Source: Desulfobaccales bacterium (GTDB lineage Bacteria; Desulfobacterota; Desulfobaccia; Desulfobaccales; 0-14-0-80-60-11). Taken from it: a stretch of DNA of 64,000 nucleotides. Every line of letters begins with the position of its first letter. Position 1 is the stretch's first letter. The notes beneath the pieces are model-generated. The model ran no database searches, had not been told where the DNA came from, and was given only the letters and a program-made list of their open reading frames with translations. The translations under genes and the position numbers were made by a program. Positions 9,514 to 53,787 of the stretch are shown here, piece by piece. The DNA lies in contig JBBFLF010000002.1 in the NCBI GenBank assembly GCA_037481655.1, positions 1,856 through 65,855 on the forward strand, given 5' to 3'.

Positions 9514-10680
9514 TCAGTCAGCCGGACGGCGGCTCTGCCGGCTCTCCCGCAGCCCGGCGCTCATCGGCACCGCCAGGGTGAGGACTCCCAGGGCCACCAC
9601 CCCTGGCCAGGCCGCCCGGGTGTAACAGAGGCCGCTTAAGGTGATGCCCCCGGCCCCGCCCAGGTAGTAAAGGAGCACGTAAAGGGAGTTGGCCCGCCCC
9701 CGGCTGGCCGCCAGCTTGCGGTTGAGGGCGCCGGCGGCGGCGGCGTGCAGGGCGAAAAAGCCGGTGCACAGCAGGAGCAGGGCCGCCACAATGGCTGGCC
9801 GGGCCGGGAGGAGGGTGAGGAGCAGGGCTGCGGCCATCAGCACACTTCCGCCGGCCATGGCCGGGCCGTTCCCCAGGCGGTCGCTCAGGCGCCCGGCCGT
9901 GGGGGCCACCACGATGCCGGTGAGGTAGGTGAGATACATCAGGGTGATGGCCTGGGTAGAAGAGAAAAAGGGCGGCCCGGCCAGATAAAAGGGGAGGTAA
10001 TTGAACACCGCGGCAAAAACCGACATGCCCGTGAGGGCGCACACATAGGGGGGCCGGAGGTCCCCCCGGGCCAAAAGGGCAAGATAGCCTTCACCTCCTT
10101 CTGGCGGGCGTTCCCCGGCTTCCTCTCCCGGCAGCCAGAAGACCGCGGCCAGGGTGGCGGCGGCCACCAGCCCCGCGGCGCTGACCAGGGCCCAGCGCCA
10201 ATGCAGAGGCGGGTGCAGCCAGCCCCCCAAGAGGCGTCCTCCCAGCCCGCCCGCCACCGTGGCCGCCACATAAGACCCCATGACCACGTTGAGGCGTTCC
10301 GGAGGCAGGGTGGTGGAGAGATAGGCGGCCAGGCAACTGGAAAGGGCGGGCAGGAACAGGCCCTGCACCAGCCGGGCGGCCACCAGCAGGGGGAAAGAGT
10401 GGGTCATCGCGCCCCAAAGCCCGGCCCCGGCCACCATGGCACCCCCCAGGGCCAGGAGCGTTTTGATGCCCGAGCGGTCCGCCAGCCAGCCGAAGGGAAG
10501 GTTGGCCGCCGCCAGCCCGGCGATTACCGCCGACACCGTCAGGGAGGCCAGGGTGGGGCTGACCCCGAACTCGGCCTGGAGGACCGGCAAGACCGGCTGG
10601 GTGATATAGATGTTGCTGAAGGCGGCCGCCACCAGGGCAAAGACCACCAGTTGCAGGCGCCGAGGACTGAGGGAAGCCAT
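9514..10680 (-). CDS. MFS transporter (YnfM-like)
   Basis: 12 predicted TM segments; IYITQPVLPVL and GWLADRSG (MFS motif A). Confidence 0.88.
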   Translation of the reverse strand: MASLSPRRLQLVVFALVAAAFSNIYITQPVLPVLQAEFGVSPTLASLTVSAVIAGLAAANLPFGWLADRSGIKTLLALGGAMVAGAGLWGAMTHSFPLLVAARLVQGLFLPALSSCLAAYLSTTLPPERLNVVMGSYVAATVAGGLGGRLLGGWLHPPLHWRWALVSAAGLVAAATLAAVFWLPGEEAGERPPEGGEGYLALLARGDLRPPYVCALTGMSVFAAVFNYLPFYLAGPPFFSSTQAITLMYLTYLTGIVVAPTAGRLSDRLGNGPAMAGGSVLMAAALLLTLLPARPAIVAALLLLCTGFFALHAAAAGALNRKLAASRGRANSLYVLLYYLGGAGGITLSGLCYTRAAWPGVVALGVLTLAVPMSAGLRESRQSRRPAD

Positions 10681-10796: not shown

Positions 10797-12134
10797 TCAG
10801 CCCTCCCTTCCCCTGCCCAGATACTCCCGCAACCAGGGGCCGCCCCGGTCCCGGAGAAGGGCGGCGACCTCTGCAAACCCGGCCGCCAGCAGCCGGTGAA
10901 TCTGTTCCCAGGTCGCCTCCCGGCCTGTGTCAGGGGCTCCAGGCGGGACCACCCGGGCCAGGATGGCCTCAGGGGCAGTCTGCCAGGTCTTCAGGGCCAA
11001 CAGAAGCGCCCTCAGATCCGCCCCGGTCACCCGGCCCCGGAAGACCTCCGGATCGGCCAGGGCGTCCCGGAGATAGTGGCCGGCGTCATCCATATCCACC
11101 CGGTGCAGGGCCGCCCGCCTCAGCAGGCAAGGGTAACAGTAACCGCAAGAGCCGCGGCCCAGCCTTCGCCAGCGGCTCGCCACCGGCCGGGCGCAGGAGA
11201 CGCTGAGAGGCGCCAGGCGGTCGAGCAGATCCGGGTTCCGGCAGCGGGCCAGCACTTCGCCTTTGGTGAGCCAGGCGTACGGATTGACCAGGGGATGCTC
11301 CAGCCCCATAGCTTGCCAGAGGCTTGCCAGACCCTGAAGGAAGCGGGGATGGGCGGTGCGGGTGCTGTAAGCGCCCAGGCGGTTCAAGGTCAGGGGGGGA
11401 TTGAGGGCGATCCAGCCGTTTTCCGGCACCACCACCGGCACCTCCGGCCCGAAACCTGCTGCCGCGGTCAGCCCCAGGGTGAGGTAAAGGAAGGAGCGGC
11501 TGCGCAGGGTCAGCTCCAGAGCCTCGGGGCATTGCAGGCGCACGGCCAGATGCTGCACATGGTCCGGCCCGAAATGCTCCGCCAGGGCGGTGGCCAGGGC
11601 CTGCTGCACCTGGGCCAGCTGGCCGTAGTCATAGTGGCTCACCAAAAGGAGCCGCTGGCCGTCTCTTAGGAGGTCGATGGCCCCGGCCAGGGAGTCCAGG
11701 CCGCCGGAGAAGAGCACCACTGCCTCGGCCACGAAGGAAGACTCCCGGCTCCCGGATACCGGCAGGGCCAACTCCGCTTCCCGGAACTCCAGGCGCCAGC
11801 GGTCTCCGGTGAGGAACTGGAGGAGCTCTTCCAGGGGGCGGCGCAGGCCGGCCCAGGCGGCGGAGGCCGGGAGCATCAAGGTGATGTCCCGGGTCCAGGC
11901 ATCCGGCGTGACGGAGCGGGGGAGGATTTTGTCCGCCGCCCAGACTGCCACGGCGGTGAGCAGGGCGGACCCCACTGCTTCCCCGGCGGTTCCCGCGGGG
12001 CGAGGCAAGGACCACAGGTTATGGTGCAGGGGCAGACCTGCCTCGCATCCCTGCTCCTCCAAATCCAGGATCAGGTCCGCCTTCCCGGGAGGCCGCCCCC
12101 GTTCCCCCGGAGCCCTAAAATAGATCCGGGTCAC
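10797..12134 (-). CDS. qatC: QueC-like protein of the Qat anti-phage family (QatC)
   Basis: PP-loop LFSGGLDS; QatC-type RSRSFLY, PENGWIALNPPL, STRTAHP, NPYAWLTKGE; Zn site SC...CGYCYPCLLRRAA. The likely start GTG 12134 overlaps the upstream stop (GTGA). The ORF track extends to 12236. Confidence 0.85.
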   Translation of the reverse strand: MTRIYFRAPGERGRPPGKADLILDLEEQGCEAGLPLHHNLWSLPRPAGTAGEAVGSALLTAVAVWAADKILPRSVTPDAWTRDITLMLPASAAWAGLRRPLEELLQFLTGDRWRLEFREAELALPVSGSRESSFVAEAVVLFSGGLDSLAGAIDLLRDGQRLLLVSHYDYGQLAQVQQALATALAEHFGPDHVQHLAVRLQCPEALELTLRSRSFLYLTLGLTAAAGFGPEVPVVVPENGWIALNPPLTLNRLGAYSTRTAHPRFLQGLASLWQAMGLEHPLVNPYAWLTKGEVLARCRNPDLLDRLAPLSVSCARPVASRWRRLGRGSCGYCYPCLLRRAALHRVDMDDAGHYLRDALADPEVFRGRVTGADLRALLLALKTWQTAPEAILARVVPPGAPDTGREATWEQIHRLLAAGFAEVAALLRDRGGPWLREYLGRGREG

Positions 12135-12766
12135 CGCGCTTTTAGGCCCTCCAGCAGCCGGGTGATCCACAGCCAGCCGGCCAGCTTGCGCCAGGCGCCC
12201 GTCGGCGGCGGCTCGGAGGCGGTGAGCCTCTGCCACAGGACGCGCCTTAGTCCCTCCCAGCCCTGCTCCAGACGGGCACTGTCCGGGGCCATGCTCTCCA
12301 GGGTCTCCCCCAAATCGAGATATAAGCGTACCGCCACCGCCTGGGCGAGAAAATCCCGCACCACCTCAGTGGCTGCCGTGGTGGAGCGAGTTAAGTGGGT
12401 GTGGAGGACGGTGATCAAGGCGCTGCGGCAGACGGCGCTCTCCAGGCTGCCCTTCTCCGGCAGCCAGGTCTCGGCCAGGGCCTGAGCCCGGGCCAGGACC
12501 GCCAGGGGAGATGGGGCCTCAGCCGCGGGCTGGCCGCGCCGCTCCTCCCAGAAAGCGCCCAATTCCTGGGCCACCTGCCGGGCCAAGCGGAAAAAGGGCG
12601 AAGCTCCCTCCGCTTCCGCCGCGGCCGTCACTGCCGCTACATACCGGTGCAGGACCTCCTGAGCGCTCACCACGTCGCCAGCCGTCGCCAGATAGCGGCC
12701 TGCTGCGGTTTTGGCCGCCCGCCAGAGACGGCCGGACGGGGGTTTCCGAGCAGTGGAGGTCCCCAT
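12131..12766 (-). CDS. qatB: QatB-like protein
   Basis: N-terminal MGTS; segments SLESAVCRSAL and DFLAQAVAVRLYLDLGE resemble QatB helices as I recall them; translationally coupled to qatC. Confidence 0.72.
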   Translation of the reverse strand: MGTSTARKPPSGRLWRAAKTAAGRYLATAGDVVSAQEVLHRYVAAVTAAAEAEGASPFFRLARQVAQELGAFWEERRGQPAAEAPSPLAVLARAQALAETWLPEKGSLESAVCRSALITVLHTHLTRSTTAATEVVRDFLAQAVAVRLYLDLGETLESMAPDSARLEQGWEGLRRVLWQRLTASEPPPTGAWRKLAGWLWITRLLEGLKAR

Positions 12767-12902: not shown

Positions 12903-12911
12903 ACTATAGCA
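12903..12911 (-). promoter_or_regulatory. Extended -10 promoter element upstream of qatB
   Basis: Minus strand TGCTATAGT (TGn + TATAGT) just after the radical SAM stop, about 137 bp upstream of the qatB ATG. Confidence 0.5.
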
Positions 12912-12914
12912 GGA

Positions 12915-14258
12915 TCAGGTTTCCTGGGCCAGCCGTTTCAGCCGGGTGTAGCGCTCCCAGGAAAAGGTGGGCCAGCAGGGGAAAAGGGAATTGTTATGGC
13001 ACAGGGGCTCCGCCCTGAGGTCATAGCGGGAGGCCGCCACCGCCTTGGGCCAGGCGGGGGTGCCGGGGAGAGGGGAGTAAGAGGCCAGGATGGGTTTCAC
13101 CCCCAGGCGCCGCAGGGTTCGGATGGAGGCCTCCATTTCGGCATCCTCCTGGCCAGGCAGGCCAAGGAGCAGATAGGCCCCGATTTCCCCCGGGGCATAG
13201 CCTGCCGCCACCAGATGGGCCACCGCCGCTTCCAGCTCTTCCTTAGCCAGCTTGCGGTCCGGCCGGGCCTCCCAGCGGGCCGCGGTCTCCACCCCGAGGC
13301 GGGGCTGGACAAACCCCGCCCGCTTGAGCGCCCGGGCCACCTCCGGGGTGAGGAAGCGGGCATGGAGGGCATTGGGGGTATGAAAGCGCAATTTCAGCCC
13401 CAGCCTTGCCACCTCCTCCAAAAAGGCTAGGGCATGCTCCTCAGGGCGACATAAGAAAGCATCGTCATATAGGGCCACGTCGGCCAAGCCCAGGGTGCGG
13501 TGCCAATACGCCAGTTCCGCTGCCGCCGCAGCAGGCGCTCGCGGTCGCCAGGGCCCGGCCAGCCGGGGAGAGGCGCAGTACTCACAGGCAAAGGGGCAGC
13601 CCCGGGAGGTGAGGAGGGGGATGAAACTGAGGCCGGAAGCCAGATGCAGGGCCGGCCAGGGGGGCTCCTCCCACGGGGCGGGAGGCCGGGGCGGCCCCAG
13701 CCCCAGGGTCGCAAGGGCGGCGGGCAACGTTTCCTCCCCCGGGCCGGGAAGAACCACATCTGCGCCGCTGACCCGACGGGCGTGCTCCGGACACAGGCTG
13801 GCGTAGATGCCCCCCAACAGCACCGGCGCCCGGGGGAAATACTCCCGCACCAGGCGGATGACGGCCGCCACCCCGGGGTACCAGTAGGTCATGAGGGAGG
13901 TCACCAGCACCGCATCCGGTGGAGCCAGCTCTTCCAGCCGGGACCGCACCTGGGCCTCGGGGGCGCCGTAGCGGCCATAGCGCCGGGGCACGTCCGCCAC
14001 CACCGGGGGCGTGGGCAGGATTTCCTTGGGATAGCGGCCGGTGCCGAAGGGACCGGGGCGGCGGGGCGCGGCCAGGCAGTCCAGATACTCCACCTCGTAG
14101 CCCAGACTCAGGAGCAGGCCTGCCAGGGTCAGCAATCCCAACGGCGCGGCAAAGAAATCATAGGCGGCGAAGTCGTAAATCCAGGGGTTGACCAGAAGCA
14201 GCCGGGGAGCCGGTCGGGGAGCCGGGGCCGGTGGCCGGGCGTCCATCAAGGTCACCAT
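12915..14258 (-). CDS. B12-binding-domain radical SAM protein
   Basis: N-terminal cobalamin-binding domain (LLVNPWIYDFAAYD...PLGL; GGIYASL) and CxxxCxxC motif RGCPFACEYC. Confidence 0.9.
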   Translation of the reverse strand: MVTLMDARPPAPAPRPAPRLLLVNPWIYDFAAYDFFAAPLGLLTLAGLLLSLGYEVEYLDCLAAPRRPGPFGTGRYPKEILPTPPVVADVPRRYGRYGAPEAQVRSRLEELAPPDAVLVTSLMTYWYPGVAAVIRLVREYFPRAPVLLGGIYASLCPEHARRVSGADVVLPGPGEETLPAALATLGLGPPRPPAPWEEPPWPALHLASGLSFIPLLTSRGCPFACEYCASPRLAGPWRPRAPAAAAAELAYWHRTLGLADVALYDDAFLCRPEEHALAFLEEVARLGLKLRFHTPNALHARFLTPEVARALKRAGFVQPRLGVETAARWEARPDRKLAKEELEAAVAHLVAAGYAPGEIGAYLLLGLPGQEDAEMEASIRTLRRLGVKPILASYSPLPGTPAWPKAVAASRYDLRAEPLCHNNSLFPCWPTFSWERYTRLKRLAQET

Positions 14259-14347: not shown

Positions 14348-15787
14348 TCAGCCGGGGGGTTGGGGTCGCTCCCGGGCAAATCCCAGGATATAGCTCCACA
14401 GACGCCGGGTGAGGGGAGTGGTGGGGGTGAGGGCAATCTCCACCACTGCGCCCTGAGCCGGCCCTCCCGGGTGGGCCCTCTTGAGGCCCGCCACCCAGAC
14501 CACCCGCCCCTCAAATAAGAGCAGGGGCAGATGGGGCCGGAGCCAGCGGGGGACATGCAGATCCGTGAGCACATCCTGGAGCTTGCGCACCCCCGGGGCG
14601 CCGGCGGGATGGAAGCGGTCCCCGGGCCGGGGCGGCCGCACCAGCAGGGGAAAGGCCACCTGGGCGGCCGGGAGGTGCGCCACCTCCGGGGGGAGCGGGC
14701 CGGAGCCCCTGGTGCTGGAAAGGACCCGGACCTCCCAGCGCCAGCCAGGAGGGGTGTCCAGCGCCCCCGGACCGGAGAGGCGCCCCTCCCAGGAGGTGGC
14801 CTGGGGCAAGGCCGGAAAAAAGTGCAGCTCCCCGCCGGCCCGGGCCGCGGTGCAACCCGCCAGGGCGAGGCTGCCGCCGCTTTTGCGGGCCCGGGCCAGG
14901 GCTACAAGGCTTTCCCGGTGCGTCTCCAAAAGCTCCCCCCCGCCGGCCGCGGCCGCCAGGTGCTGCAGCAGCCGGGCCTGGAGCGCTTCGGGGAGACTGC
15001 AGAGGGCTGCCGTGCTCACCGCCCAAAGGTCCGGGGCCGGCCGGCGCACCAGACGGGTGAAGGCCGCCTCGGTGTGGGTCTTCAGGAAGCGCTCGTCCTC
15101 CTGAAGCCGGGCCATGAGCCGCCACACCCCTTCCCGGAGGCGGGGGTTATAGTTAGCCTCCAGATGCGGCAGGAGCTCCTGGCGCACCCGGTTGCGGAGA
15201 TAAGCGGGGCTGAGATTGCTTATATCCTGCTGATAAGGGAGGCCTTCCTTTTCCAGCCAGGCCAGGAGCACGGCCTTGCCCACCGCCAAGAGCGGCCGGA
15301 TGAAGCCCTCGGGGGAGACGGGCCACATGCCGGCCAGGCCGCTGAGCCCCGCGCCTCGCATCAGGCGCAGGAAAAAGAGTTCCACCTGATCATCGGCGGT
15401 GTGGCCGACGGCCACTTGGTCATAACCCTCTTCCTGGCAAACCCGACGGAGATAAGCCCGGCGGAGCTCCCGGGCGGCCATCTGCACCGAGAGGCCCTGT
15501 CCGCGGGCGTGGGCGGCGGCATCTCCCCGGCCCTCGTGGTAAGGCAGGTCCAAATCAGCCGCCAGCCGGGCCACAAAGGCGGCGTCGGCATCCGCCGCCG
15601 CGCCCCGGAGGCCGTGATGGAAATGGGCCACGCCGAGGGTAAGGCCCAAATCCACCCTGAGGCGCCACAACAGATGGAGCAGGGCCACGGAATCCGGCCC
15701 CCCGGAGACCGCCACCAGGAGGCGCTCTCCCGCAGCACAGAGCCCTGCCCCGCGGAGATACTCCCTCACCCAGACCGGCAGATCCAC
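14348..15787 (-). CDS. tilS: tRNA(Ile)-lysidine synthetase
   Basis: VAVSGGPDS PP-loop, GHTADDQVE, RNRVR, C-terminal RPGDRF...KLQDVL. Start estimated at GTG 15787; the ORF track extends to 15907. Confidence 0.95.
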   Translation of the reverse strand: MDLPVWVREYLRGAGLCAAGERLLVAVSGGPDSVALLHLLWRLRVDLGLTLGVAHFHHGLRGAAADADAAFVARLAADLDLPYHEGRGDAAAHARGQGLSVQMAARELRRAYLRRVCQEEGYDQVAVGHTADDQVELFFLRLMRGAGLSGLAGMWPVSPEGFIRPLLAVGKAVLLAWLEKEGLPYQQDISNLSPAYLRNRVRQELLPHLEANYNPRLREGVWRLMARLQEDERFLKTHTEAAFTRLVRRPAPDLWAVSTAALCSLPEALQARLLQHLAAAAGGGELLETHRESLVALARARKSGGSLALAGCTAARAGGELHFFPALPQATSWEGRLSGPGALDTPPGWRWEVRVLSSTRGSGPLPPEVAHLPAAQVAFPLLVRPPRPGDRFHPAGAPGVRKLQDVLTDLHVPRWLRPHLPLLLFEGRVVWVAGLKRAHPGGPAQGAVVEIALTPTTPLTRRLWSYILGFARERPQPPG

Positions 15788-15816
15788 CGGGGCCGTCGGG
15801 TCAAGGAGCGGGAGAG

Positions 15817-16200
15817 CTAATCGCCGGGCCACAGACTTTGGACCGCCTGGAGGAGAGAGCTTTTGGAAAAAGGCTTGGAGAGGAAGAGGTCCACCAGCTC
15901 CGGCCACTCCCGGCGCTGAGCCGGGTCCGGCACCTCGGAGGACATGAGCACAATGCGGCAGTCGGGGGCCATCTCCTTTAGGCGCCGGGCCACTTCCAGG
16001 CCGGTGAGGCCCGGGAGATGGTAATCCACCAGAGCCAGGCGCAGGGGCACCCCGAGGGTCACGGCCTCCAGATCGGCCAAACCGTCCCAGGCAAGGACCT
16101 GGAAGCCCGCCTTAGTCAGGATGTGGGTGATGGCCTCCCGGGTGCCGGGGTCATCGTCCACCACCAGAATCCTGGCCTCCATCAGGTCTCCCTGTGCCAT
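15817..16200 (-). CDS. Single-domain response regulator (CheY-like)
   Basis: ILVVDDD, LVDYHLP (phospho-Asp), SKP. Confidence 0.9.
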   Translation of the reverse strand: MAQGDLMEARILVVDDDPGTREAITHILTKAGFQVLAWDGLADLEAVTLGVPLRLALVDYHLPGLTGLEVARRLKEMAPDCRIVLMSSEVPDPAQRREWPELVDLFLSKPFSKSSLLQAVQSLWPGD

Positions 16201-43807: not shown

Positions 43808-44176
43808 GCCTGACGCAGGCAGTACATGGGAATGGGCCCCAGGGGATTTTTATCCCTTTAACGGCATTATATTACCATAAGGCCCCAAAATTAAAGGTGG
43901 GTGGCGGAAAACTGCCGCGGATTTGCCACCAGCCCGGCGTAAAGCCAGACAAGTGTGAGAGGTGTAATCCCTAGGATGGGAGAATCAACCAGAACTAAAC
44001 CTCCTCTCTTTAATCGGCCCCTCCCTTTTTCCTGATTAATTTTCCGCCCGAGAGTCAGGCGCCTTTGCCGAATCCGCTCTCTGACCGTCCTGCTCCTCCC
44101 CCCTTTTTTGCTTGCCTCGGGAAACCTCTTGCCGCTCCCGTCCTGCCTCGCCGTCCCTCATCCCCCGTCCTTCACG

Positions 44177-44241
44177 GCCGCCCTTCCCCGCCGCCCTTCC
44201 CCGCCGCCCTTCCCCGCCGCTCTGCCCCGCCGCTCTCCCCC
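44177..44241. repeat. 13-bp tandem repeat, 5 copies (3 perfect GCCGCCCTTCCCC, 2 degenerate)
   Basis: Read directly: units start at 44177, 44190, 44203, 44216 and 44229. Confidence 0.9.
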
Positions 44242-44303
44242 GCCCTGCCCTACACTGCCGCCCTGTGGCCTTCGTGGTCCTCCTCTATGTCCCTCGCCCG
44301 CCG

Positions 44304-44600: not shown

Positions 44601-44822
44601 GACTGGCACCTTCCTGAGCGAATGTCCTGGAGCACGTAAAGATTCCTGAGCCTTCTGCACTACTTTTCGAACTACTGGGCAAATCCCTTTAATTTGTGAC
44701 CGGTGGGCAGGGCCGGGGGAAAATGGCTCCCCTTCCGCTTTCGGGCCAACTTCGACCACGTCGCCCCGGCATTTTTGTGCTATGGTACGACAAACTCCGA
44801 CCTGAGTTCATGGGAGGGCGCC

Positions 44823-47800
44823 ATGGGTGCCGGTGGGAGAGGGCCAGGCCTGAGGGGCCTCCTGGGGATCACCCTGGGGGTGGTGTGGATGCTCATGGTG
44901 GGGGGCCCGGCGGCTGCCGGAACGCAGCCGGCACGCCCAGGGGGGCCTCCCGGCTTCGACCCGGAGAGGGAATTCACTGTGGTGGCCATCCAGCCGGAGG
45001 CGGCCAAAGGGGAGGTGCGCCTGGTCTTCAGCCACCCGGTCCCCAAAGAAGTATTGCAGGCGCACCTGAAGTTTCTCCCCCGCCTGAAGGTGGATTGGGG
45101 CGAAAGCCGCCTCAGTCCCGAGGGCGTCCTCACCCTCAAGGGCAGCTTCCGTTACGGGCGGCGCTATGCCGTGCACCTGCCGGAGGGCCTGGAGGTGGGC
45201 GGGCGGCGCTACCGGCAGACAGTGAGCCAGTTCTTTCTCCCAGATCGCCCCCCCTTCCTCGAATTCGTGGATGACAAAACCGTCCTGGAGAGGCAGAGCC
45301 GGCAGCTCTTCCATGTCCGGGCGGAAAATGCCGGGCCCCTGGAGGTGGAGGCGCTGACGGTGCCGCCCCTGCTGCTCGCCCCTGCCCTGGCCGCCCAGGC
45401 GCGGGGCCGGCCGCCGACTGAGCTTGCTGAGGAGCTGGGCGCCGCCCTGCAGGAACTCGGGCCCCTGGCGAAGCAGCGTCCCTTTGCCCTCTTCGCCGGC
45501 GAGGCGATGCTGGAAAAACAGCTCTTCGGGGTCACCCTGGACAAGAACCGCCTCCAGGCGGTCTCCCTGCCTCTCACCTTCCGGCGGCAGCATCAGGAAG
45601 GGGGCCTGGTCTATCTCCGGGTTAAGAACGCCGGGCCGGGCGACTCCGCCACTTCGCCCCGTCTCTTTCGCCTCACCGACCTGGGCCTCACCTACAAGCG
45701 GGGCCAGGGGGGGCTCTTGGTCTGGGCCACCTCCCTTAAGGAGGGCCGGCCGCTGGCCGGGGTCCAGGTGCTGGCCTGCACCCGGGACTTCCAGGTGTTT
45801 CCCCTGGGAGAGACGGGCCCCGACGGCGTCCTGGTCTTCCCGGGCCGGGAGCTGGCGGGCCTCAGTCTGGCGCGGCAAGGCGCCTTCGCCCGGGTCAGCC
45901 GCCGGGTGGATCCAGGGGAGGTGGCCTTTCTCTTGGCGGGCAAAGAAAAGGATTGCACCTATGTGGAGGTGCGCCCTCGGGGGGATATGAAGCCGGCCGA
46001 GGTATGGCAGGAGCCCCTCAACGGCATGGTCCCTCCGCAACGGGGGCATCTCTTCACCGAGCGGGGCGTGTATCGCCCCGGGGAGACGGTCTATTTCAAA
46101 GGCACGGTGCGGGAATGGCGGGAGGGCCGCATCGTCGCCCCGGCCGGGGGCCGGGTGACGGTGAGCGCGGTCAATCCCAAGGGCGAGAGCCTCCTGGACA
46201 CGGAGCTTACCCTGTCGGAATTCGGTACCGCCGCGGGTGAGTTCCGCCTGCCGGGCCACAGCCCCTTGGGCACCTACACCCTGACCATGCGCTTCGGCGC
46301 CGAGGCGGCAGAGAGCCCAGGGGAGGAGGAGCCTGACAACGGGAACCACCCCCGGCGGCCCCGGGAGGAGGCCAAAACCACTTTTGAGGTGCAGGAGTTC
46401 ACTCCGCCCCGCCATTTCGTGGAGCTGGATTTCTCCCGGCACACCCGGGAGCTCCCGGAATATGTGGGCGTGACGGCCAAAAGGGAGTTCGTCCAGATCA
46501 GGATCAGCGGCCATTATTATGCCGGCGGGCCGGTGAAAAACGGGCAGGTGCGCTGGAAGATCTCCCGGGCCAAAACCTCCTTCCCCCAGGCGGAGCGGCC
46601 GGGATTCACCTTCGGCTATGACGAGGGGCGGCGGGAGGAGCTCATCGAGGCGGGGCAGGCCCTCCTGGATGAACACGGCCGGGCCGAGATTTCCTTTCCT
46701 CTGGACCAGGCGGTGCTCACCGGACGCCAAGGATTGCTGGTGATGGCCACGGTGCTGGACTTCGACGGCCGGGCCGCCTCCCACAGCCGCACCTTCCAGG
46801 TGGAGCCGGAGGTGCTATTGGGCCTCAAGCCCCCTGCCGGCCCCGTGCGGGTAGGGGGGGAGCTCAGGGTCGGGGTCATGGCGCTGCGTCAGGGGCGGCC
46901 GCTGGCTGAGGGCACCCTGCAGGCCGAGATCTTCACCGAAGGCTGGAGCTATGTGGCCAAGCGCAATGAGCAGGGGGATCTCTACTGGGATGACCAGCAG
47001 GTCTGGCGGCGGCTGAGCCAACAGAGCCTCCGCCTCGTCAAGGGGGAAGCGGTCTTCGCCACCGGAGTGGCCCACGGGGGACAATACCTGATATCGGTGA
47101 GCTATCGGGATCCCGCTGGCCGCACCTATGCCGCGGCGCTGCCGGTGTCGGTGGAATGGGCCTTCGACGATGAAGGCCGGCGCAAACGGCCGGTTCCTTA
47201 TCATCCCCTGACCCTGGCCGCCGACCGGGCCGCCTATGAGCCCGGCCAGACGGCAAGACTCTTCCTGAGCTCCTCCCGGCCGGTGAGCCACTATCTGGTC
47301 ACCGTGGAGCGGCAGGGGGTCATGCAGCACCGGGTGGTGGCCGCCAGCGGCCCTTCCCAGGAGCTGGAGCTCCCCATTTTGCCGGACTTTGCCCCCAATG
47401 TTTACGTGTCCGTCCTGGGCCTTAGTCCCCGGGGGGACTTCCCCCTGTATTCCGGCGCCTATGACGCCGAGGCCCCGGGCTGCCTCTGGGCCAATGTGAA
47501 CCTGCCGGTGCGCCTGCAGGTGGAGGGGCTCAAGGTGGCCATCGCGGCGGAGCGCCCGGAGCTCAAGGCCGAACCCGGCCAGAGCTTCACTCTGGACCTG
47601 CAGGTCACGGGGGCGAAGGGGAAGGGCGCGGAGGCCGAAGTGGCGCTGGCCGTGGTGGATGAGGCGGTTTTAGCCCTCACCGCCTACAAAACCCCCACCC
47701 TGGAGTCCCTCCTGCGCTTCGATCTGCCGCTGAGGGTCAGCACCGGGGATCTCAGGGCCCTGCTCCTGCACCAGACCCCCTTCCGGCTGGCCCGAAGCGA

Positions 47801-49931
47801 ACCTTTGACCGGCGGCGGCGGCCTGCAGGAGGACCTGGTGGCCAAGCTCCGGAAGGATTTCAAGGCCGTGGCCTACTTCAACCCGGCAGTGCGCACCGAC
47901 CCGCAAGGGCGGGCAAAAGTGTCTTTTACTTTGCCGGACAATCTCACCACTTTCCGGGTTTATGCAGTGGCCCTGGATCGGGGCAGCCGCTTCGCCAGCG
48001 CCGAGCGCGCGCTTGTGGTCAGCAAGGATTTCTATCTGGAACCCGGCCTGCCCGGGTTTTTCACCGTGGGCGACACCTTCCGCTTCCTGGTGAATGCCGT
48101 CAATCACACGCCCACAGCCGGGGAGGTGAGCCTGAGCGCCGTGGCGGAGGGGGGCCTGTTTCTCAAGGCCGAGGAGCCCCGCGCTCCCCTCCCCCCCAAA
48201 GACAGCCGCAAGCTGGCGGTGAGCGGCCAGGCGGCGGAGGCCGGCCCGGCGGCCGCGCGGTTCGCCGCCCGTTTCGACGGCCGGGCGGATGCGGTGGAGC
48301 TGCCGCTGAGGGTGCGCTCCGGCTTCCTCACCGGCACCGAGGTGCATTTCGGGTCCCTGACCGGCACCACCGAGGTGGCGGTGCCGCTGCCGCCGGAGAT
48401 GGCCGCCGCCCCGGAGGCGAAAAAGCTGGCCGGGGAGACCAGGGCGGTCCTCACCCTCACCGGCTCCCCCTTCTTGCGCCTGCGGCCGGCCTTGCAGTAT
48501 CTCTTCACTTACCCTTATGGCTGCGCCGAGCAGACCGCCTCCGGCGTTTTGGGCCTGGCGGCCTTGAGAAACCCGGTGCGCCAGGGGATGCTGGACCGCC
48601 CCTCTCCCGAGGAGCTGGACCGCTTTCTGGAGAAAGGCATCAGCCGGCTCCTCACCATGCAGACCACCAACGGCGGCTTTGCTTACTGGCCGGGACAGCG
48701 GGAGGCCCATCCCTGGGCCAGCCTCTATGCCACCGCGGCGCTGGCTGTGGCCCAGCGGCAGGGGGTCCCGGTGCCTGCCGAAGGGCTGGAGCGGGCCCAT
48801 GAGTATCTGAAGGCCCGGCTGCGGGAAGGCCGCACCCCGCCGGAATACAAGGCCTTCGGCGCCTATCTCTTGAGCCTGGGCGGGGCCTTGGACCGCAAAC
48901 TCTATACCCAGACGGCCCCAGAAGAGCCCCGCCTCTCCCGGGAGGGCAAGTTGCTCCTCATCCTGGCCGCGGCTCAGGCCAAACTGAAGCCGGCCAAGGA
49001 ACTCAGCGCCGCTCTCCGCCCCCTGATGCTGCCCCGGGCGGAAAAAGAGCTCTGGCAGGATGAATTCCATGCCCGCTTCCGGCCGCAGGCCCTGGCGGTG
49101 CTGGCCGGCCAGGTGCTCCTGCCGGGGGACCCGACGGTCCGGGAGGCGGCCCATCAGCTTTTGGCAGGGATGGACCGCCAGGGACGCTGGACCTCCACCA
49201 GCGACACCGGCTGGTGCCTGCTGGCCCTGGCGGAATACTTCAAGGGCCTGACTTTTGCCCAGGAACCCGCCGAGATCAGCGTCAGCCAGCCGGGGGGGTC
49301 GCCGCAGCGGCTGCGGGTCGATCCCAAGAGTTTCCGCACCGTGGCCCTGAATCCGGAGCTGCTGCTGCGGTCCCCTCGCGTAACCCTCGCCGGGCCGCCG
49401 GGCACCACCTGGCTTTATGAGCTGGCCCTCACGTATCCCCGGGTGGACGCCAGCGTCAGCGGGGAGGCCGCCGGGTTCAAGGTGAAGAAGACCATCGCCA
49501 ACACCGATGGCTCGCCGCAGATCCGGGTGGGGGACCTGGTGAAGGTCACGGTGGAGCTGGAAACCGACCTGCCCGGCCTGCAGTATGTGGTGCTGGATGA
49601 CCCTCTGCCCGCGGGCCTGGTGGCCATCAACACCGCCTTCAAAACTGAAGAGCCCCTCCCCGAAGGGGAGGACCAGGAGTCGGAAGACGACTTCGACTAT
49701 CTGGACCCGGTGGGCCGGATGCGGTTCCGCCCCAGCTTCTTTGAGATCCGCCAGGACCGGGTGCTGGCCTTCCGGGACTGGCTCTGGCGGGGCCCCCAGG
49801 TCTTTGAATATTATGCCCGGGCGGTGTGCGAAGGCTCCTTTGTGGTGCCCGGCACGCAGGTGTCGGCCATGTATGCCCCCAAGGTTCGGGGCTCCTCCCC
49901 TCAGTCCCGCCTGGAGGTCAAGGGGCGCTGA
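44823..49931 (+). CDS. yfhM: Bacterial alpha-2-macroglobulin (MG2 domains, thioester domain)
   Basis: FTERGVYRPGETV, LPDNLTTFRV, thioester YPYGCAEQ, DDPLPAGL. Start estimated at ATG 44823. Confidence 0.93.
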   Translation: MGAGGRGPGLRGLLGITLGVVWMLMVGGPAAAGTQPARPGGPPGFDPEREFTVVAIQPEAAKGEVRLVFSHPVPKEVLQAHLKFLPRLKVDWGESRLSPEGVLTLKGSFRYGRRYAVHLPEGLEVGGRRYRQTVSQFFLPDRPPFLEFVDDKTVLERQSRQLFHVRAENAGPLEVEALTVPPLLLAPALAAQARGRPPTELAEELGAALQELGPLAKQRPFALFAGEAMLEKQLFGVTLDKNRLQAVSLPLTFRRQHQEGGLVYLRVKNAGPGDSATSPRLFRLTDLGLTYKRGQGGLLVWATSLKEGRPLAGVQVLACTRDFQVFPLGETGPDGVLVFPGRELAGLSLARQGAFARVSRRVDPGEVAFLLAGKEKDCTYVEVRPRGDMKPAEVWQEPLNGMVPPQRGHLFTERGVYRPGETVYFKGTVREWREGRIVAPAGGRVTVSAVNPKGESLLDTELTLSEFGTAAGEFRLPGHSPLGTYTLTMRFGAEAAESPGEEEPDNGNHPRRPREEAKTTFEVQEFTPPRHFVELDFSRHTRELPEYVGVTAKREFVQIRISGHYYAGGPVKNGQVRWKISRAKTSFPQAERPGFTFGYDEGRREELIEAGQALLDEHGRAEISFPLDQAVLTGRQGLLVMATVLDFDGRAASHSRTFQVEPEVLLGLKPPAGPVRVGGELRVGVMALRQGRPLAEGTLQAEIFTEGWSYVAKRNEQGDLYWDDQQVWRRLSQQSLRLVKGEAVFATGVAHGGQYLISVSYRDPAGRTYAAALPVSVEWAFDDEGRRKRPVPYHPLTLAADRAAYEPGQTARLFLSSSRPVSHYLVTVERQGVMQHRVVAASGPSQELELPILPDFAPNVYVSVLGLSPRGDFPLYSGAYDAEAPGCLWANVNLPVRLQVEGLKVAIAAERPELKAEPGQSFTLDLQVTGAKGKGAEAEVALAVVDEAVLALTAYKTPTLESLLRFDLPLRVSTGDLRALLLHQTPFRLARSEPLTGGGGLQEDLVAKLRKDFKAVAYFNPAVRTDPQGRAKVSFTLPDNLTTFRVYAVALDRGSRFASAERALVVSKDFYLEPGLPGFFTVGDTFRFLVNAVNHTPTAGEVSLSAVAEGGLFLKAEEPRAPLPPKDSRKLAVSGQAAEAGPAAARFAARFDGRADAVELPLRVRSGFLTGTEVHFGSLTGTTEVAVPLPPEMAAAPEAKKLAGETRAVLTLTGSPFLRLRPALQYLFTYPYGCAEQTASGVLGLAALRNPVRQGMLDRPSPEELDRFLEKGISRLLTMQTTNGGFAYWPGQREAHPWASLYATAALAVAQRQGVPVPAEGLERAHEYLKARLREGRTPPEYKAFGAYLLSLGGALDRKLYTQTAPEEPRLSREGKLLLILAAAQAKLKPAKELSAALRPLMLPRAEKELWQDEFHARFRPQALAVLAGQVLLPGDPTVREAAHQLLAGMDRQGRWTSTSDTGWCLLALAEYFKGLTFAQEPAEISVSQPGGSPQRLRVDPKSFRTVALNPELLLRSPRVTLAGPPGTTWLYELALTYPRVDASVSGEAAGFKVKKTIANTDGSPQIRVGDLVKVTVELETDLPGLQYVVLDDPLPAGLVAINTAFKTEEPLPEGEDQESEDDFDYLDPVGRMRFRPSFFEIRQDRVLAFRDWLWRGPQVFEYYARAVCEGSFVVPGTQVSAMYAPKVRGSSPQSRLEVKGR

Positions 49932-52297
49932 TGTCCGGCCCGGTTCGCCGTCGCCTGAGGGCCTGCCTGCTCCTGCTACTTCTGGGAGGGGGGGCGCTGG
50001 CCGCGGGGCAGGTGGAGCGGCTAAGCCGCATTGATCCGGCCCGTCTTGCCCCTGCCCCCGGCCCCCTCGTCCTGGACCGTCACGGCCGCATCTTACGCCT
50101 GGGACTGGATGCCCAGGGTCGCAAGGTCATCCTCCTGCCCCCCGGCCCCTTGCCGCCGCTGGTGGTGCAGGCCTTTGTGGCGGCGGAGGACCGGCGCTTC
50201 TGGCAGCACCCCGGGGTGGATTTTGTGGCCGCAGGGCGGGCGTTGCTGAGCAATCTCACCCATGGCCGCATCGTCTCCGGGGCCTCCACCCTCACCATGC
50301 AGCTTTGCCGTCAGCTCGAGCCCGGGCCCCGCACCTATGGCCGCAAGCTGACGGAAATGGCCCGGGCCGTGCGATTGGAAGCCGCCTTCCCCAAGGAGGA
50401 GATCCTGCGCCATTTTCTGAATCGCGTGCCCTTGGGGGGCAACCTGGTGGGGGTGGAGACCGCCGCCCGGGCGTATTTCGGCTGTGCGGCGGCGGAACTC
50501 ACCCCGGCCCAGGCCGCCGCCTTGGCTGCCCTGGCAAAGGCGCCCACCCGGCTCCATCCCCGGAAGGCCCCCGCGGCCCTCCTCTCCCGGCGGCAGCGGG
50601 TTTTGCAGGTCATGGGATTCTTGGGGTATTTAACCCCCCACCAGGTGGCGCTGGCTCACCATGAACCCCTGTCTCTTGCTCCCGGAGCCCCCGCCCTGCC
50701 TTTTGCCGCGCCACACTTCGTCAATCTGGTACTGGCCTCCGCCCCTTTGCCCTCCCATGGCCTGGTAACTACCACCCTGGACCTGGACCTGCAGTCCCGG
50801 GCCGAGGCCATCCTCACCTCCCACCGGGAACGCCTCCGGAGGCATGGCGCCCGCCAGGCAGCCCTGGTGGCCCTGGATAATCGCTCAGGCGAAATCCTGG
50901 CCCTGGTGGGCTCCCTGGAATACAGCCGCCGTGAGCAAGGCCTGGTCAACGGCGCCAGCGCCCAACGCTCCCCCGGCTCGGCCCTCAAGCCCTTCCTTTA
51001 TGCCCTGGCCCTGGACCTGGGACTCACCCCGGCCACCCTGCTCCCGGATGTGGAGCGCCGTTACCGCATCCCCGGGGGCGAATTCCAGCCCTTGAACTTC
51101 GACCGCACCGCCCACGGACCCGTCTCCTTCCGGGAGGCCCTGGGCAATTCCCTTAACCTGTCGGCAGTGCGCCTCCTTTCCCATCTAGGTCCCGAGTGTT
51201 TTTACGCCACCCTGGAGAAACTGGAGCTCATCTCTCCTGCGGCGCCGGGCCCGGAGCACTATGGCCTGGGTCTGGTGGTGGGCAATGTGGAGGTGAGTCT
51301 CCTGGCCCTGGCCCAGGCCTACGCCACCTTAGCCAACGGCGGGCTTTTTCGCCCCCTCCGTCTCCTGAAGGACAGCCCGGAACCCCCGCCCCGGCGGGTC
51401 TTCTCCGCCCAGGCCGCCTACATCATCAGCGACATCCTGACCGATCCGGTGGCCCGGGGCCGGGTCTTTGGGGCCTCCCAGGCCATGAATCCCCCCTTCC
51501 CCCTCGCCCTCAAGACCGGCACTAGCAGCCGCTACCGGGACTGCTGGGCGGTGGGCTATACCCGGGACCATACCCTGGCGGTGTGGGTGGGGAACTTCGA
51601 CGGCCACCCCACCCGGGAGGCCAGCGGAGCTCAGGTGGCCGCCCCCATCCTGGCGGCCTTGGCCGCGGAACTCTACCGCCACCGGCCCCCAGAGCCCCTG
51701 CCCCGGCCTGCGGGACTGGTGGCCATGGATATCTGCGCCTTTTCCGGCCAGCGCCCCGGGCCGGCCTGCCCGCACCGCACCCGGGAGCTGTTCATCGCCG
51801 GGGCCGAGCCCGGCGAGATCTGCACCCTGCACCACCCCGGGGAGCCCTGGCACCGCTTGACCCCGGAGTACGCCGGCTGGCTCAAGGGCCGCCACCTCAA
51901 AGCCAGCGCCGGCCGCTTCCGCCTGGCCGGGTTTCCCGCCGACCTGGAGCGCCTATTCCATCCCACCCCCATATCCACGACCCAGACTTGGCCCTCGCCG
52001 GCAAAGGGAGCAATTTCCATGCCAGATCGGCACACCACGGGGGGCGGGGTGTCCATTGTCCGGCCGCTGGCAGGGGAGCGGTATGTGCTGCCTCCAGGGT
52101 CGGCGTCCTTAAGCCTCACCGCCGCCGCGGAGGTGCAAGCCCCCCTGCCGGCGGTCAGCTGGTACCTCAACGGCCGGGAGCTGGCCCGGGTGGGGCCGCC
52201 CTATGAGGTGGAACTCCAGCTTCCCCGGGGCCGGCATCGCCTGGCGGCCCTGGACCCCCTAGGGTTTGGCGATGAGGTGGAGGTGAGGGTGGAATGA
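49931..52297 (+). CDS. pbpC: Penicillin-binding protein 1C
   Basis: Transglycosylase EDRRF, GASTLTMQ, RKLTE; transpeptidase SALK, SLN, KTGT; C-terminal BiPBP_C-like domain; TGATG overlap with the alpha-2-macroglobulin stop. Confidence 0.93.
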   Translation: MSGPVRRRLRACLLLLLLGGGALAAGQVERLSRIDPARLAPAPGPLVLDRHGRILRLGLDAQGRKVILLPPGPLPPLVVQAFVAAEDRRFWQHPGVDFVAAGRALLSNLTHGRIVSGASTLTMQLCRQLEPGPRTYGRKLTEMARAVRLEAAFPKEEILRHFLNRVPLGGNLVGVETAARAYFGCAAAELTPAQAAALAALAKAPTRLHPRKAPAALLSRRQRVLQVMGFLGYLTPHQVALAHHEPLSLAPGAPALPFAAPHFVNLVLASAPLPSHGLVTTTLDLDLQSRAEAILTSHRERLRRHGARQAALVALDNRSGEILALVGSLEYSRREQGLVNGASAQRSPGSALKPFLYALALDLGLTPATLLPDVERRYRIPGGEFQPLNFDRTAHGPVSFREALGNSLNLSAVRLLSHLGPECFYATLEKLELISPAAPGPEHYGLGLVVGNVEVSLLALAQAYATLANGGLFRPLRLLKDSPEPPPRRVFSAQAAYIISDILTDPVARGRVFGASQAMNPPFPLALKTGTSSRYRDCWAVGYTRDHTLAVWVGNFDGHPTREASGAQVAAPILAALAAELYRHRPPEPLPRPAGLVAMDICAFSGQRPGPACPHRTRELFIAGAEPGEICTLHHPGEPWHRLTPEYAGWLKGRHLKASAGRFRLAGFPADLERLFHPTPISTTQTWPSPAKGAISMPDRHTTGGGVSIVRPLAGERYVLPPGSASLSLTAAAEVQAPLPAVSWYLNGRELARVGPPYEVELQLPRGRHRLAALDPLGFGDEVEVRVE

Positions 52298-52385: not shown

Positions 52386-53597
52386 CTAAGATTCACCTTT
52401 CTCAATTTTCCTGCCCTCACCATCCGGCGCCGCCAGGCCGGATTCTATGAGATAACGATTGACAAAGATTTTATTTCTTAAATATACACAGGCCATAAAT
52501 TTTGTACATTGAGCGTCGGAATCTGCTTCTTTTATTATCACTCTTTTATGTAAAACCTGGCGTTTTAAGTAGTCAATTGTGTCAGCCTTGTCTTTTATTT
52601 TTACTCCTCGGAACCCCACTTTTCTGCCGTCATTTAATAAAATCGTGTTTTCATCAATGATGCGCACCACCCTGGGCAGGTCCTGCTGCCGGTAATCTGC
52701 CGCCAGGGCGTTCTGCTCCGGGAAAGCGTTCTGAATGGCGGGCACATAATCGATTTTCGGGAGCGGGGAAGGCTCTTTCCGGGTGATCAGGGTGACCCGC
52801 TCCTCAAAGGGCAGGCGGTGGGCCAGGCCCAGCTTCTCCCGGATGAGGGGGAGGAAGGTGTCGCTGATCTCATAGCCGATGGCATTGCGCCCCTGCTCCA
52901 GGGCCACCCTGGCCGTGGTGCCGCTCCCCAGGAAGGGGTCCAGCACCGTGTCGCCTACGAAGGTGAACATGCGGATGAGCCGGCGGGGCAGCTCCTCCGG
53001 GAACATGGCCTCATGTCCCACCTGCCTGGCGCCCCCGAAGTGCCAATGCCCGGCGAAGTACTCCTTCCACTCTTCTTTGCTTAACCGGGAAGCCTCCTTC
53101 ACCTCCCGGCTCACCTTCTTCCCCGGGCCCGGCTTCTTGAAGATGAGGATAAATTCGTAATCGATCTCCACCAGGCCGTTGGGGGGATAAGGGTAGGAGC
53201 CCATGACCGGCGCGCCGCCGGTAGTGTTCATGGTGGTCTTTTTCTGCCAGATGATGCTCCCCAGGAAATCGAAACCCAGGCGCTCCCCCTGAACGATGAT
53301 CTCGGCGTGCAGCGGGATGACCTTGTAGCGCCCGTAAATGGCGGCCCGGGCGAACTGATCCCCCACATTGACGGTAAGCCGCCCCCCGGGCCGCAGCACC
53401 CGGAAGCACTCCCCCCAGACCCGGTACAGATCCTGCAAATATTCATGCAGGCTCTGCCCGTAGCCGATCTGGCCGGGGACACCGTAGTCCTTGAGGTGCC
53501 AATAAGGGGGGGAGGTGACCACCAGGTCAACGCTGGCGTCGGCCGCCTCTGGCATGGAGCGGCTGTCCCCCAGAATGATTTTGGCCCAGGTATCCAT
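52386..53597 (-). CDS. Beta-class site-specific DNA methyltransferase (N4C/N6A) fused to an SNase-like C-terminal domain
   Basis: VVTSPPY (motif IV) precedes VLDPFLGSGTT (motif I); HEAMFPEEL; the tail RVVRIIDENTILL...VYL...FVNRYLIESGLA follows the thermonuclease pattern. Confidence 0.87.
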   Translation of the reverse strand: MDTWAKIILGDSRSMPEAADASVDLVVTSPPYWHLKDYGVPGQIGYGQSLHEYLQDLYRVWGECFRVLRPGGRLTVNVGDQFARAAIYGRYKVIPLHAEIIVQGERLGFDFLGSIIWQKKTTMNTTGGAPVMGSYPYPPNGLVEIDYEFILIFKKPGPGKKVSREVKEASRLSKEEWKEYFAGHWHFGGARQVGHEAMFPEELPRRLIRMFTFVGDTVLDPFLGSGTTARVALEQGRNAIGYEISDTFLPLIREKLGLAHRLPFEERVTLITRKEPSPLPKIDYVPAIQNAFPEQNALAADYRQQDLPRVVRIIDENTILLNDGRKVGFRGVKIKDKADTIDYLKRQVLHKRVIIKEADSDAQCTKFMACVYLRNKIFVNRYLIESGLAAPDGEGRKIEKGES

Positions 53598-53787
53598 GGT
53601 TTTAGGGGGTGGTTCGTGAAGGAGGGGGCCAAGGGGAGCTGACCCTGGACCGCCCTTTCCATCCCTCATAGGGTGCCACAGAATCTCTGCGTTTACAGAT
53701 TATTGCCTTTGAGGCTCAAGCCCTTGAGGGGGGAGGCGGGTGAAGGAAGGGCTAAGGAAACACTGCTCACTGCGTTTCGCCCTTGCC

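Follow-up and report, generated by a model that had tools for sequence, protein, structure and literature searches.

A two-gene QatB–QatC locus without qatA or qatD in a Desulfobaccales bacterium and its relatives

Can two genes of a four-gene anti-phage system persist as a unit of their own? The question is raised by a 64,000-nucleotide stretch of contig JBBFLF010000002.1 from a Desulfobaccales bacterium (the window), which encodes an overlapping pair of genes, qatB and qatC. The canonical anti-phage system, qatABCD, was reportedly described by Gao et al. in 2020. An initial annotation of the window had described the pair as a coupled two-gene unit with neither the qatA ATPase nor the qatD nuclease beside it and had suggested a minimal, domesticated protein-deazaguanylation module with a different effector or a non-defence role. 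Our analysis favors, with a probability of roughly 0.7, a functional and natural two-gene QatBC module that belongs to a distinct monophyletic clade, has lost qatA and qatD, and has been vertically inherited since its fixation. What is new here is this lineage-fixed, short-tail QatBC-only clade; the Qat system itself was already known.

Identity of the QatC and QatB proteins

By its sequence, the larger open reading frame (ORF) is unambiguously QatC. It matches NCBIfam NF041925 over its full length with 332.4 bits (curated cut-off 280) and the PADLOC QatC model (PDLC02214) at E 1.2e-99, and the solved QatC structures 9zee_B (E 2e-58) and 9vlk_A are also matched. Some proteins of the clade described below already carry the NCBI label QatC. 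With canonical QueC (PF06508/TIGR00364), QatC shares a Rossmann-like PP-loop core, the SGGxDS motif, and a zinc-binding cysteine cluster. However, the window protein matches the QueC models in the PP-loop region only (TIGR00364, 24 bits versus 150; NF008317, 21 versus 378), and QatC from E. coli fails to complement a queC deletion (PMC13329287).

The PP-loop and the zinc site are both intact, as had been noted at the outset: SGGLDS and the four cysteines C314, C330, C333, and C336 are present and invariant in an alignment that includes canonical QatC. T258, R259, T260, H262, and P263 of the substrate site are invariant in the same alignment, as are E238 and G240 (ExG), K291 (P(x)4TK), R339, and R340. 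The PP-loop equivalents S156 and S161 are essential in P. aeruginosa, T258 and T260 correspond to T278 and T280, which are essential as well (PMC13279940), and the pattern C...CGxCxxC..RR, which the window protein matches, marks the zinc site of the QatC cluster (PMC13329287). The QatB-binding loop of QatC, LNPPLTLNRLG.YSTRT.HP, is invariant across the clade.

Recognition of the partner as QatB required profile and fold methods because simple searches found nothing; phmmer against PDB, Pfam, and PADLOC returned no match for the window protein. Twenty-five homologues were recovered at 36–98% identity, giving 26 members with the window protein. NCBIfam NF041924, a QatB model, was matched by 25 of the 26 and was the sole consistent family, while the PADLOC QatB model was matched by 13 of the 26 and PF28083 is recorded on several homologues. 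Aligned by hhalign with three annotated plasmid QatB proteins, the clade profile gave a probability of 92.5% (E 4.9e-7), clade residues 10–155 corresponding to canonical residues 63–220, and the best PDB profile match was 9vll_A, the QatB chain of the E. coli QatBC structure (E 0.019). The AlphaFold2 (AF2) model of window QatB has a predicted local distance difference test (pLDDT) score of 87 and contains eight helices, the first of which begins at residue 13 and leaves ~12 residues before it. Foldseek placed two P. aeruginosa QatB chains, 9y02_A and 9y01_A, at the top of its matches to this model (probability 1.00, template modeling (TM) score ~0.5), and the next match had an E value of 0.3.

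The N terminus of window QatB reads MGTSTARKPP and falls within a shared block, MGTS.AR..P....WR.AK..A.RYL, that is invariant among the homologues. The earlier reading that the partner begins with MGTS was thus borne out in the ORF and extends to the whole family, M1, G2, T3, and S4 being unchanged in all 26 members; in canonical QatB, this motif is essential (PMC13279940, PMC13639016). Taken together, the profile, fold, and motif evidence indicates that the partner is QatB of a divergent subfamily, as predicted from its sequence and structural model.

One clade member, on a 16.8-kb contig (JGI/ENA/Logan), encodes an in-frame QatB–QatC fusion, P0075, of 679 residues with a linker of ~15 residues. 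The fusion could be real, or it could be an artefact of a frameshift or of assembly where the two genes overlap by 4 nt. We read it as a probable sign of functional linkage between QatB and QatC.

A QatBC-only clade without QatA and QatD

QatA and QatD were sought in the 64-kb window by tblastn with canonical proteins from three annotated qatABCD plasmid loci. Neither QatA (best E 0.9) nor QatD (best E 0.3) gave a match in the window, whereas canonical QatC from the same set matched at 1e-61 to 1e-65. Likewise, the PADLOC matches listed for the 51 window ORFs comprise QatC and an unrelated type II methyltransferase and include no QatA or QatD.

A survey with the QatC alignment against one genome per GTDB species yielded 80 loci with 10-kb flanks, and all of their ORFs were annotated with our own QatA, QatB, and QatD profiles as well as with the window neighbors. 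Two QatC groups separate cleanly among these loci. The canonical group comprises 36 loci from many phyla, in which QatC is 31–45% identical to the window protein and QatA and QatD are each present in 35 loci; the single locus without QatA lacks upstream flank. The second group, the QatBC-only clade, comprises 44 loci with QatC at 47–74% identity to the window protein, and none of the 44 contains QatA or an adjacent QatD. Its members are Desulfobaccales, Syntrophobacterales, Desulfobacca, and metagenome-assembled genomes (MAGs) assigned to 'Deltaproteobacteria' or Thermodesulfobacteriota, and its restriction to Desulfobaccales/Syntrophobacterales-type Thermodesulfobacteriota holds for the surveyed sample. 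The absence of qatA and qatD beside the pair, first noticed in the window, is shared by 44 related loci, which supports the idea of a genuine minimal qatBC unit. In this clade, the pair sits behind a conserved block of a histidine kinase (HK) gene, a response regulator (RR) gene, tilS, and a radical SAM (rSAM) gene.

Weak TatD-like genes occur in 4 of the 44 clade loci. They score ~1e-19 to 1e-20 against the QatD profile and lie 5–7 kb away on the opposite strand, whereas true QatD genes lie directly next to qatC and reach 1e-38 to 1e-130; by score, distance, and strand, they were rejected as QatD and regarded as housekeeping TatD. These genes, our 64-kb view of the window genome, and the occasional unlinking of qatB and qatC from each other are what could be cited for a split canonical system, in which qatA and qatD would lie elsewhere in the genome and act in trans with the window pair. 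We regard such an arrangement as very unlikely, given that QatA is missing within 10 kb of all 44 qatC genes, that canonical systems are contiguous wherever the flank suffices, and that the weak TatD matches look like housekeeping genes next to the scores of true QatD. Clade QatB has also lost the long linker and in this respect departs from the architecture of the canonical partner.

A midpoint-rooted neighbor-joining (NJ) tree recovers the clade as monophyletic in 29 bootstraps out of 30 and nests it among canonical QatC, with locus L052 as its sister. This nesting, together with a sister that carries qatABC, suggests that qatD and qatA were lost secondarily. L052 comes from a Candidatus Eiseniibacteriota MAG (contig CBDCYW010000010.1), encodes qatA-qatB-qatC without a detectable qatD, and has a QatC that is the immediate sister of the clade, again with 29 of 30 bootstraps; the locus possibly represents an intermediate stage of stepwise loss.

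Inheritance and genomic neighborhood of the pair

Relatives with 74–79% QatC identity have the same gene order as the window from cydAB through alaS. At 55–64% identity, the order HK–RR–tilS–rSAM–qatB–qatC is kept and the downstream genes have changed, with MFS–pgpA replaced by genes for a cyclic nucleotide monophosphate (cNMP)-binding protein and an ion channel; RNase H genes are present in some distant members. Upstream of the rSAM gene, tilS is found in 20 of 23 loci. In the 23 loci where all five genes are present, the pairwise identity of QatC correlated with that of QatB (Spearman 0.77), rSAM (0.77), TilS (0.70), and HK (0.63), and the mean pairwise identity of QatC (60%) was close to that of the essential TilS (56%), indicating a similar rate of divergence. 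Ratios of nonsynonymous to synonymous substitution (dN/dS, NG86) were 0.34–0.47 for qatC, 0.37–0.53 for qatB, 0.33–0.36 for tilS, and 0.20–0.26 for the rSAM gene; they indicate purifying selection, with dS estimates that are rough at 80–90% GC in third codon positions (GC3).

Of the clade loci, 34 extend 1.5 kb or more upstream of qatC, and in 28 of these the fetched flank contains qatB; the six without it include L055, which has a partial QatC match only. In L028, L031, and L033, qatC stands without an upstream qatB. Four further loci were found via the rSAM protein instead of QatC, and qatB lies downstream of the rSAM gene in all four and qatC in three. On the 1.55-Mb contig CAVPIX010000010.1, qatC (L032) and the HK–RR–tilS–rSAM–qatB block (L094) are ~385 kb apart, and qatB and qatC are both intact. 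In the Desulfobaccales loci L040, L042, L043, L030, L038, and L021, qatB and qatC are separated by inserts of 0.7–2.6 kb, and the one in L043 includes a second radical-SAM-like ORF with the motif CKTRCHFC.

The search of IMG/VR viral contigs returned no member of the clade, the five viral matches all being canonical-type, and canonical systems are common on plasmids, adjoining restriction, Abi, and integrase genes. The clade is a stable, vertically inherited chromosomal module as opposed to a mobile defence island. The host-integrated, 'domesticated' picture drawn in the initial annotation agrees with the conserved synteny, the co-divergence with tilS, and the purifying selection seen across the lineage. 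Since the same pair is vertically inherited across a whole lineage of bacteria of the sulfate-reducer and syntroph type, we consider it a natural minimal variant and not a broken copy. That it could be a decaying, functionless remnant of a qatABCD operon is suggested by the two missing genes of four, the insertions between qatB and qatC in some Desulfobaccales, and the partial QatC match of L055. However, the ORFs are intact, their dN/dS values lie below 1 and resemble those of tilS, the catalytic motifs are invariant across sequences just 47–60% identical, and a remnant not under selection would have disappeared over the age of the clade, which makes this reading extremely improbable.

The closest companion of qatB is the B12-binding rSAM gene, which lies directly upstream of it in 23 of the 25 clade loci with enough flank, a linkage tighter than the qatB–qatC adjacency. 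All NCBIfam matches of the window rSAM protein were below their cut-offs. The family, ~440 residues long and well conserved, is marked by the motifs LLINPWIYDFAAYD, MTYWYPG, and GCPFxCxYCAS, and it is broad, with 600 clusters at 50% identity (E ≤ 1e-30) and >150 full-length clusters at 35–50% identity. Among 81 loci of homologues with 38–50% identity, none had qatB, qatC, or tilS beside the rSAM gene. Their neighbors (L100–L180) are heterogeneous, including mnmE/jag, a metallo-beta-lactamase (MBL)-fold hydrolase, dtd, and others, and hint at an RNA- or tRNA-related housekeeping role. In the clade loci, the rSAM gene often overlaps tilS by 4 nt. Because the broad family is otherwise never found beside qatBC, has heterogeneous neighbors, and is coupled to tilS, the function of rSAM appears to be independent of QatBC.

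A three-gene system, in which rSAM would replace QatA and QatD as the partner of QatBC, for instance by modifying the QatB adduct or making the substrate, nevertheless has points in its favor beyond the frequent adjacency. The rSAM–qatB–qatC trio persists in the basal subclade (L049, L054, and L058) without tilS, RR, or HK and with spacers of 13–24 nt, and qatB remains with the rSAM gene where qatC is ~385 kb away. Against it stand the size of the rSAM family and the lack of qatBC at the homologue loci, the translational coupling of rSAM to tilS in many loci, the stronger conservation of rSAM than of QatB or QatC, a promoter-like motif between the rSAM gene and qatB in the main subclade, and the fact that canonical qatABCD loci never carry the rSAM gene; the literature searched contained no paper linking QatB or QatC with a radical SAM gene. 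We therefore downgraded rSAM from a dedicated Qat partner to a rival explanation that is quite unlikely; rSAM probably has no dedicated role in Qat, and its lineage-specific linkage to qatB may reflect just an insertion site and shared transcription.

The rSAM–qatB spacer of the window is 148 nt long, and its only conserved block, judged from the window and four close relatives, is TGCTATAGT. The pattern TGnTAnnGT occurs at the same position, 4–7 nt past the rSAM stop, in 19 of the 30 clade loci with rSAM and qatB, the window included (L002, L003, L006, L014, L016, L018, L023–L029, L034, L037, L045, L050, L053, and L057). Its resemblance to an extended -10 element suggests that qatBC has a promoter of its own in the main subclade. 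A consensus promoter and terminator scan called no promoter, TGCTATAGT included, and found terminators at chance level only. A riboswitch or other RNA upstream of qatB was considered and rejected, with no Rfam match, preQ1 included, and a spacer hairpin that is not more stable than its shuffles (z -0.72). The check for queD and queE suggested earlier found neither gene in the 64-kb window (queD by tblastn). In more distant clade members only, a PTPS/QueD-family gene lies 2–5 kb downstream of qatC on the opposite strand. The coordinates of these features are collected in Table 1.

Table 1. Positions of the QatB–QatC pair, its motifs, and neighboring features (window coordinates unless a locus is named)
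Feature	Position	Strand	Remarks
qatB	12131..12766	minus	211-residue ORF; short-tail divergent QatB, N terminus MGTSTARKPPSGRLW followed by an all-helical domain
MGTS motif of QatB	12755..12766	minus	invariant 26/26; Gly2, exposed once Met is removed, is the presumed acceptor
qatC	10797..12134	minus	445 residues; QueC-family PP-loop ATPase with QatC-specific N- and C-terminal extensions
qatB stop/qatC start overlap, GTGA	12131..12134	minus	direct sequence reading; translational coupling
PP-loop SGGLDS, QatC residues 143–148	11691..11708	minus	ATP pyrophosphate-binding motif; invariant, canonical QatC included
T258-R-T260-A-H-P	11346..11363	minus	QatC-specific substrate-site threonines and HP motif
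Zinc site C314, C330, C333, C336, C(x)15CGYCYPCLLRR	11127..11195	minus	invariant, canonical QatC included
TGCTATAGT, extended -10-like motif	12903..12911	minus	4 nt past rSAM stop; candidate qatBC promoter
B12-binding radical SAM gene	12915..14258	minus	447 residues, subfamily unknown; Pfam B12-binding and Radical_SAM
tilS (tRNA-Ile lysidine synthetase)	14348..15907	minus	upstream of rSAM; TIGR02432, 159 bits (cut-off 93.6)
Major facilitator superfamily (MFS) transporter	9514..10680	minus	3' of qatC; context only, conserved in closest relatives only
PTPS/QueD-family gene, L006	13160-13540	opposite qatC	
PTPS/QueD-family gene, L007	16553-16924	opposite qatC	
PTPS/QueD-family gene, L009	13040-13417	opposite qatC	
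PTPS/QueD-family gene, L181	10421-10792	opposite qatC	

The coupled GTGA unit of the initial annotation was confirmed by direct reading of both minus-strand ORFs. The junction reads GCG CGG TGA, in which GTG (12134–12132) overlaps TGA (12133–12131) by 4 nt, and this overlap makes 12134 the most likely qatC start. The resulting 445-residue protein agrees with the database gene call and with all homologues. The neighbors run in the order alaS, recA, thpR, cinA, pgpA, MFS, qatC, qatB, B12-binding rSAM, tilS, a single-domain RR, an HK with dCache/HAMP domains, and cydBA, and no mobile-element or known defence gene is present among those listed from alaS to cydAB. The pair has a GC content of 0.68–0.70 versus ~0.66 for the window, so that the flanks, the lack of a mobile element, and the host-like composition are all as first described. 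The true start of tilS is probably ~25 codons inside its longest ORF. The RR gene (window 15817–16200), tilS, and the rSAM gene are often joined by overlapping stop and start codons (L007, L034, L094, L181, and L182), so that tilS, an essential gene of tRNA modification, seems to share an operon with the genes of a two-component system.

Elsewhere in the window, a 427-residue DNA methyltransferase gene (52386–53669, minus strand; PADLOC MTase_II, E 8.9e-129) lies between pbpC and ruvA in a local low-GC pocket (0.585 at 52–53 kb), and the ORFs of at least 100 residues from pbpC to ruvA include no obvious restriction partner. By sequence reading only, a 1742-residue alpha-2-macroglobulin-like protein (44703–49931, plus strand) is followed by an 823-residue PBP1C-type transglycosylase/transpeptidase (49826–52297, plus strand). 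A 13-nt tandem repeat, CCGCCCTTCCCCG, with 7.5 copies (44138–44265) is located just upstream of the alpha-2-macroglobulin-like gene.

Proposed mechanism, role, and meaning

In the history that we favor, the clade would have arisen within canonical qatABCD systems and then shed qatA and qatD, and the pair would have become fixed beside the housekeeping block of HK, RR, tilS, and B12-radical SAM genes and remained vertical since. By analogy with canonical systems, QatB and QatC would form a complex. Once Met1 is cleaved off, Gly2 of QatB would insert its free amine into the PP-loop active site of QatC. QatC would use ATP to adenylate the carboxylate of 7-carboxy-7-deazaguanine (CDG) or a related molecule and would move the activated substrate onto Gly2, the modified QatBC complex presumably being the active unit. 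Such ATP-dependent conjugation onto Gly2 is suggested because all canonical sequence features are conserved and a natural fusion exists. To our knowledge, in vitro reconstitution of Qat has failed, and we know of no account of how modified QatB stops phage, in canonical systems included.

The published structures place the QatB N terminus, from Gly2, inside the QatC active site (PMC13376578, PMC13639016), G2D and PP-loop mutants abolish Qat defence (PMC13279940, PMC13376578, PMC13639016, PMC13434339), and an NDG-modified GTSKAY peptide has been detected at a low level (PMC13376578, PMC13639016). The literature still treats the initial QatC substrate as unidentified, since Thr-x-Thr replaces the CDG-binding Tyr/Asp (PMC13279940, PMC13376578, PMC13639016, PMC13434339). 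The proposal of protein deazaguanylation thus holds in part: the chemistry is real for Cap9 of type IV CBASS, whereas that of QatC is still called unresolved because two threonines replace the nucleobase-recognition residues (PMC13279940). Similar to QatB–QatC, Cap9–CdnD (bioRxiv 10.1101/2025.04.06.647259) pairs a QueC-family enzyme with a Met-Gly protein, and the reaction proposed is the same, with ATP-dependent attachment of a carboxylated base to the amine of Gly2. However, Cap9 is a minimal QueC of ~185 residues that has the Tyr/Asp CDG-recognition residues in place of the threonines of QatC, and the window pair has no adjacent CD-NTase, Cap10 (TGT-like), or effector gene, its neighbors being rSAM and MFS.

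Comparing the window pair with canonical qatABCD of E. coli, P. aeruginosa, and A. baumannii (PMC13279940, PMC13376578, PMC13639016, PMC13434339), QatC is ~35–40% identical and its PP-loop, T-x-T/HP motif, Cys4 zinc site, and extensions are the same, as are the MGTS N terminus and helical fold of QatB and the order of the genes, with qatB upstream of qatC and their stop and start codons overlapping. However, the pair lacks QatA (KAP NTPase) and QatD (TatD nuclease), its QatB is ~70 residues shorter and has no disordered linker, and the clade is chromosomal, housekeeping-associated, and vertical, whereas canonical systems are patchy, often found on plasmids or islands, and spread by horizontal gene transfer (HGT) (PMC13434339). 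A QatD-seeded survey described seven natural forms, none of them qatBC-only, and called Qat HGT-driven (PMC13434339), and in another survey, neighboring qatA or qatD genes accompany only ~34% of the QatC-cluster genes, the remainder not being described (PMC13329287).

Truncated QatBC alone protects E. coli from lambda-vir and P1 (PMC13279940, PMC13434339). Engineered truncations in P. aeruginosa and E. coli contain the same two components as the window and show that these can act as an autonomous unit (PMC13279940, PMC13434339), but they are laboratory deletions of four-gene operons, whereas the clade is natural and lineage-wide and has a remodeled QatB. In the literature searched, sufficiency of QatBC was reported for engineered truncations only. 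The 'different effector' of the initial annotation is not needed, since truncated QatBC defends by itself; rSAM, the one conserved candidate partner, belongs to a family that normally occurs without qatBC. Phage defence by a QatBC core, as in the truncated E. coli and P. aeruginosa operons, would be the most economical role for the clade.

The pair could instead have been recruited for a cellular, non-defence function, for example in regulation or in the response to stress, perhaps in connection with the tilS–rSAM operon. The core-like vertical distribution and co-divergence with tilS, the absence of a defence island or mobile element nearby and of viral-contig members, the integrity of both genes when unlinked, the conserved promoter-like motif, and the loss of QatA and QatD, both of which widen the phage range in canonical systems (PMC13279940), are all in keeping with such recruitment. 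We hold it to be possible but doubtful: there is no positive evidence of a cellular target or phenotype, QatBC alone is experimentally a defence unit, every residue needed for canonical defence is retained, and vertical inheritance is compatible with immunity. A domesticated core function for QatB–QatC in a wider sense, maybe wired to tilS/rSAM and amounting to a housekeeping or regulatory role or to constitutive, lineage-fixed immunity, seems rather unlikely to us.

Several observations weigh against a functional QatBC module derived by gene loss. The expectation that both ORFs match Qat hidden Markov models held for QatC and failed for QatB, whose 25 bits lie far from the NF041924 cut-off of 100 and below every curated cut-off. 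Window QatB is without the 30–90-residue disordered tail typical of canonical QatB, and with so short a tail, the geometry of its insertion into QatC may differ. The P0075 model, built on a shallow QatC alignment, has a pLDDT of 74 and a predicted TM score (pTM) of 0.55, with the N terminus undocked, residues 1–6 below a pLDDT of 50, and active-site loops of low confidence. Because the tree is a midpoint-rooted NJ tree, loss as opposed to an ancestral minimal state is not secure, and the rough dS values bear on the case for selection. Lineage-wide vertical inheritance in a housekeeping neighborhood is also atypical for defence systems.

The QatBC-only clade lends independent evolutionary support to QatBC as the functional core, with a short-tail QatB and without QatA or QatD. 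It will escape rule-based tools that ask for all four genes, and window QatB falls under the curated thresholds. The clade offers hundreds of diverged, motif-conserved sequences and may supply simpler proteins for reconstitution and structural work, some of them from hot environments. It also allows one to ask whether a protein-modification system known from 'defence' can turn into a function fixed in the chromosome.

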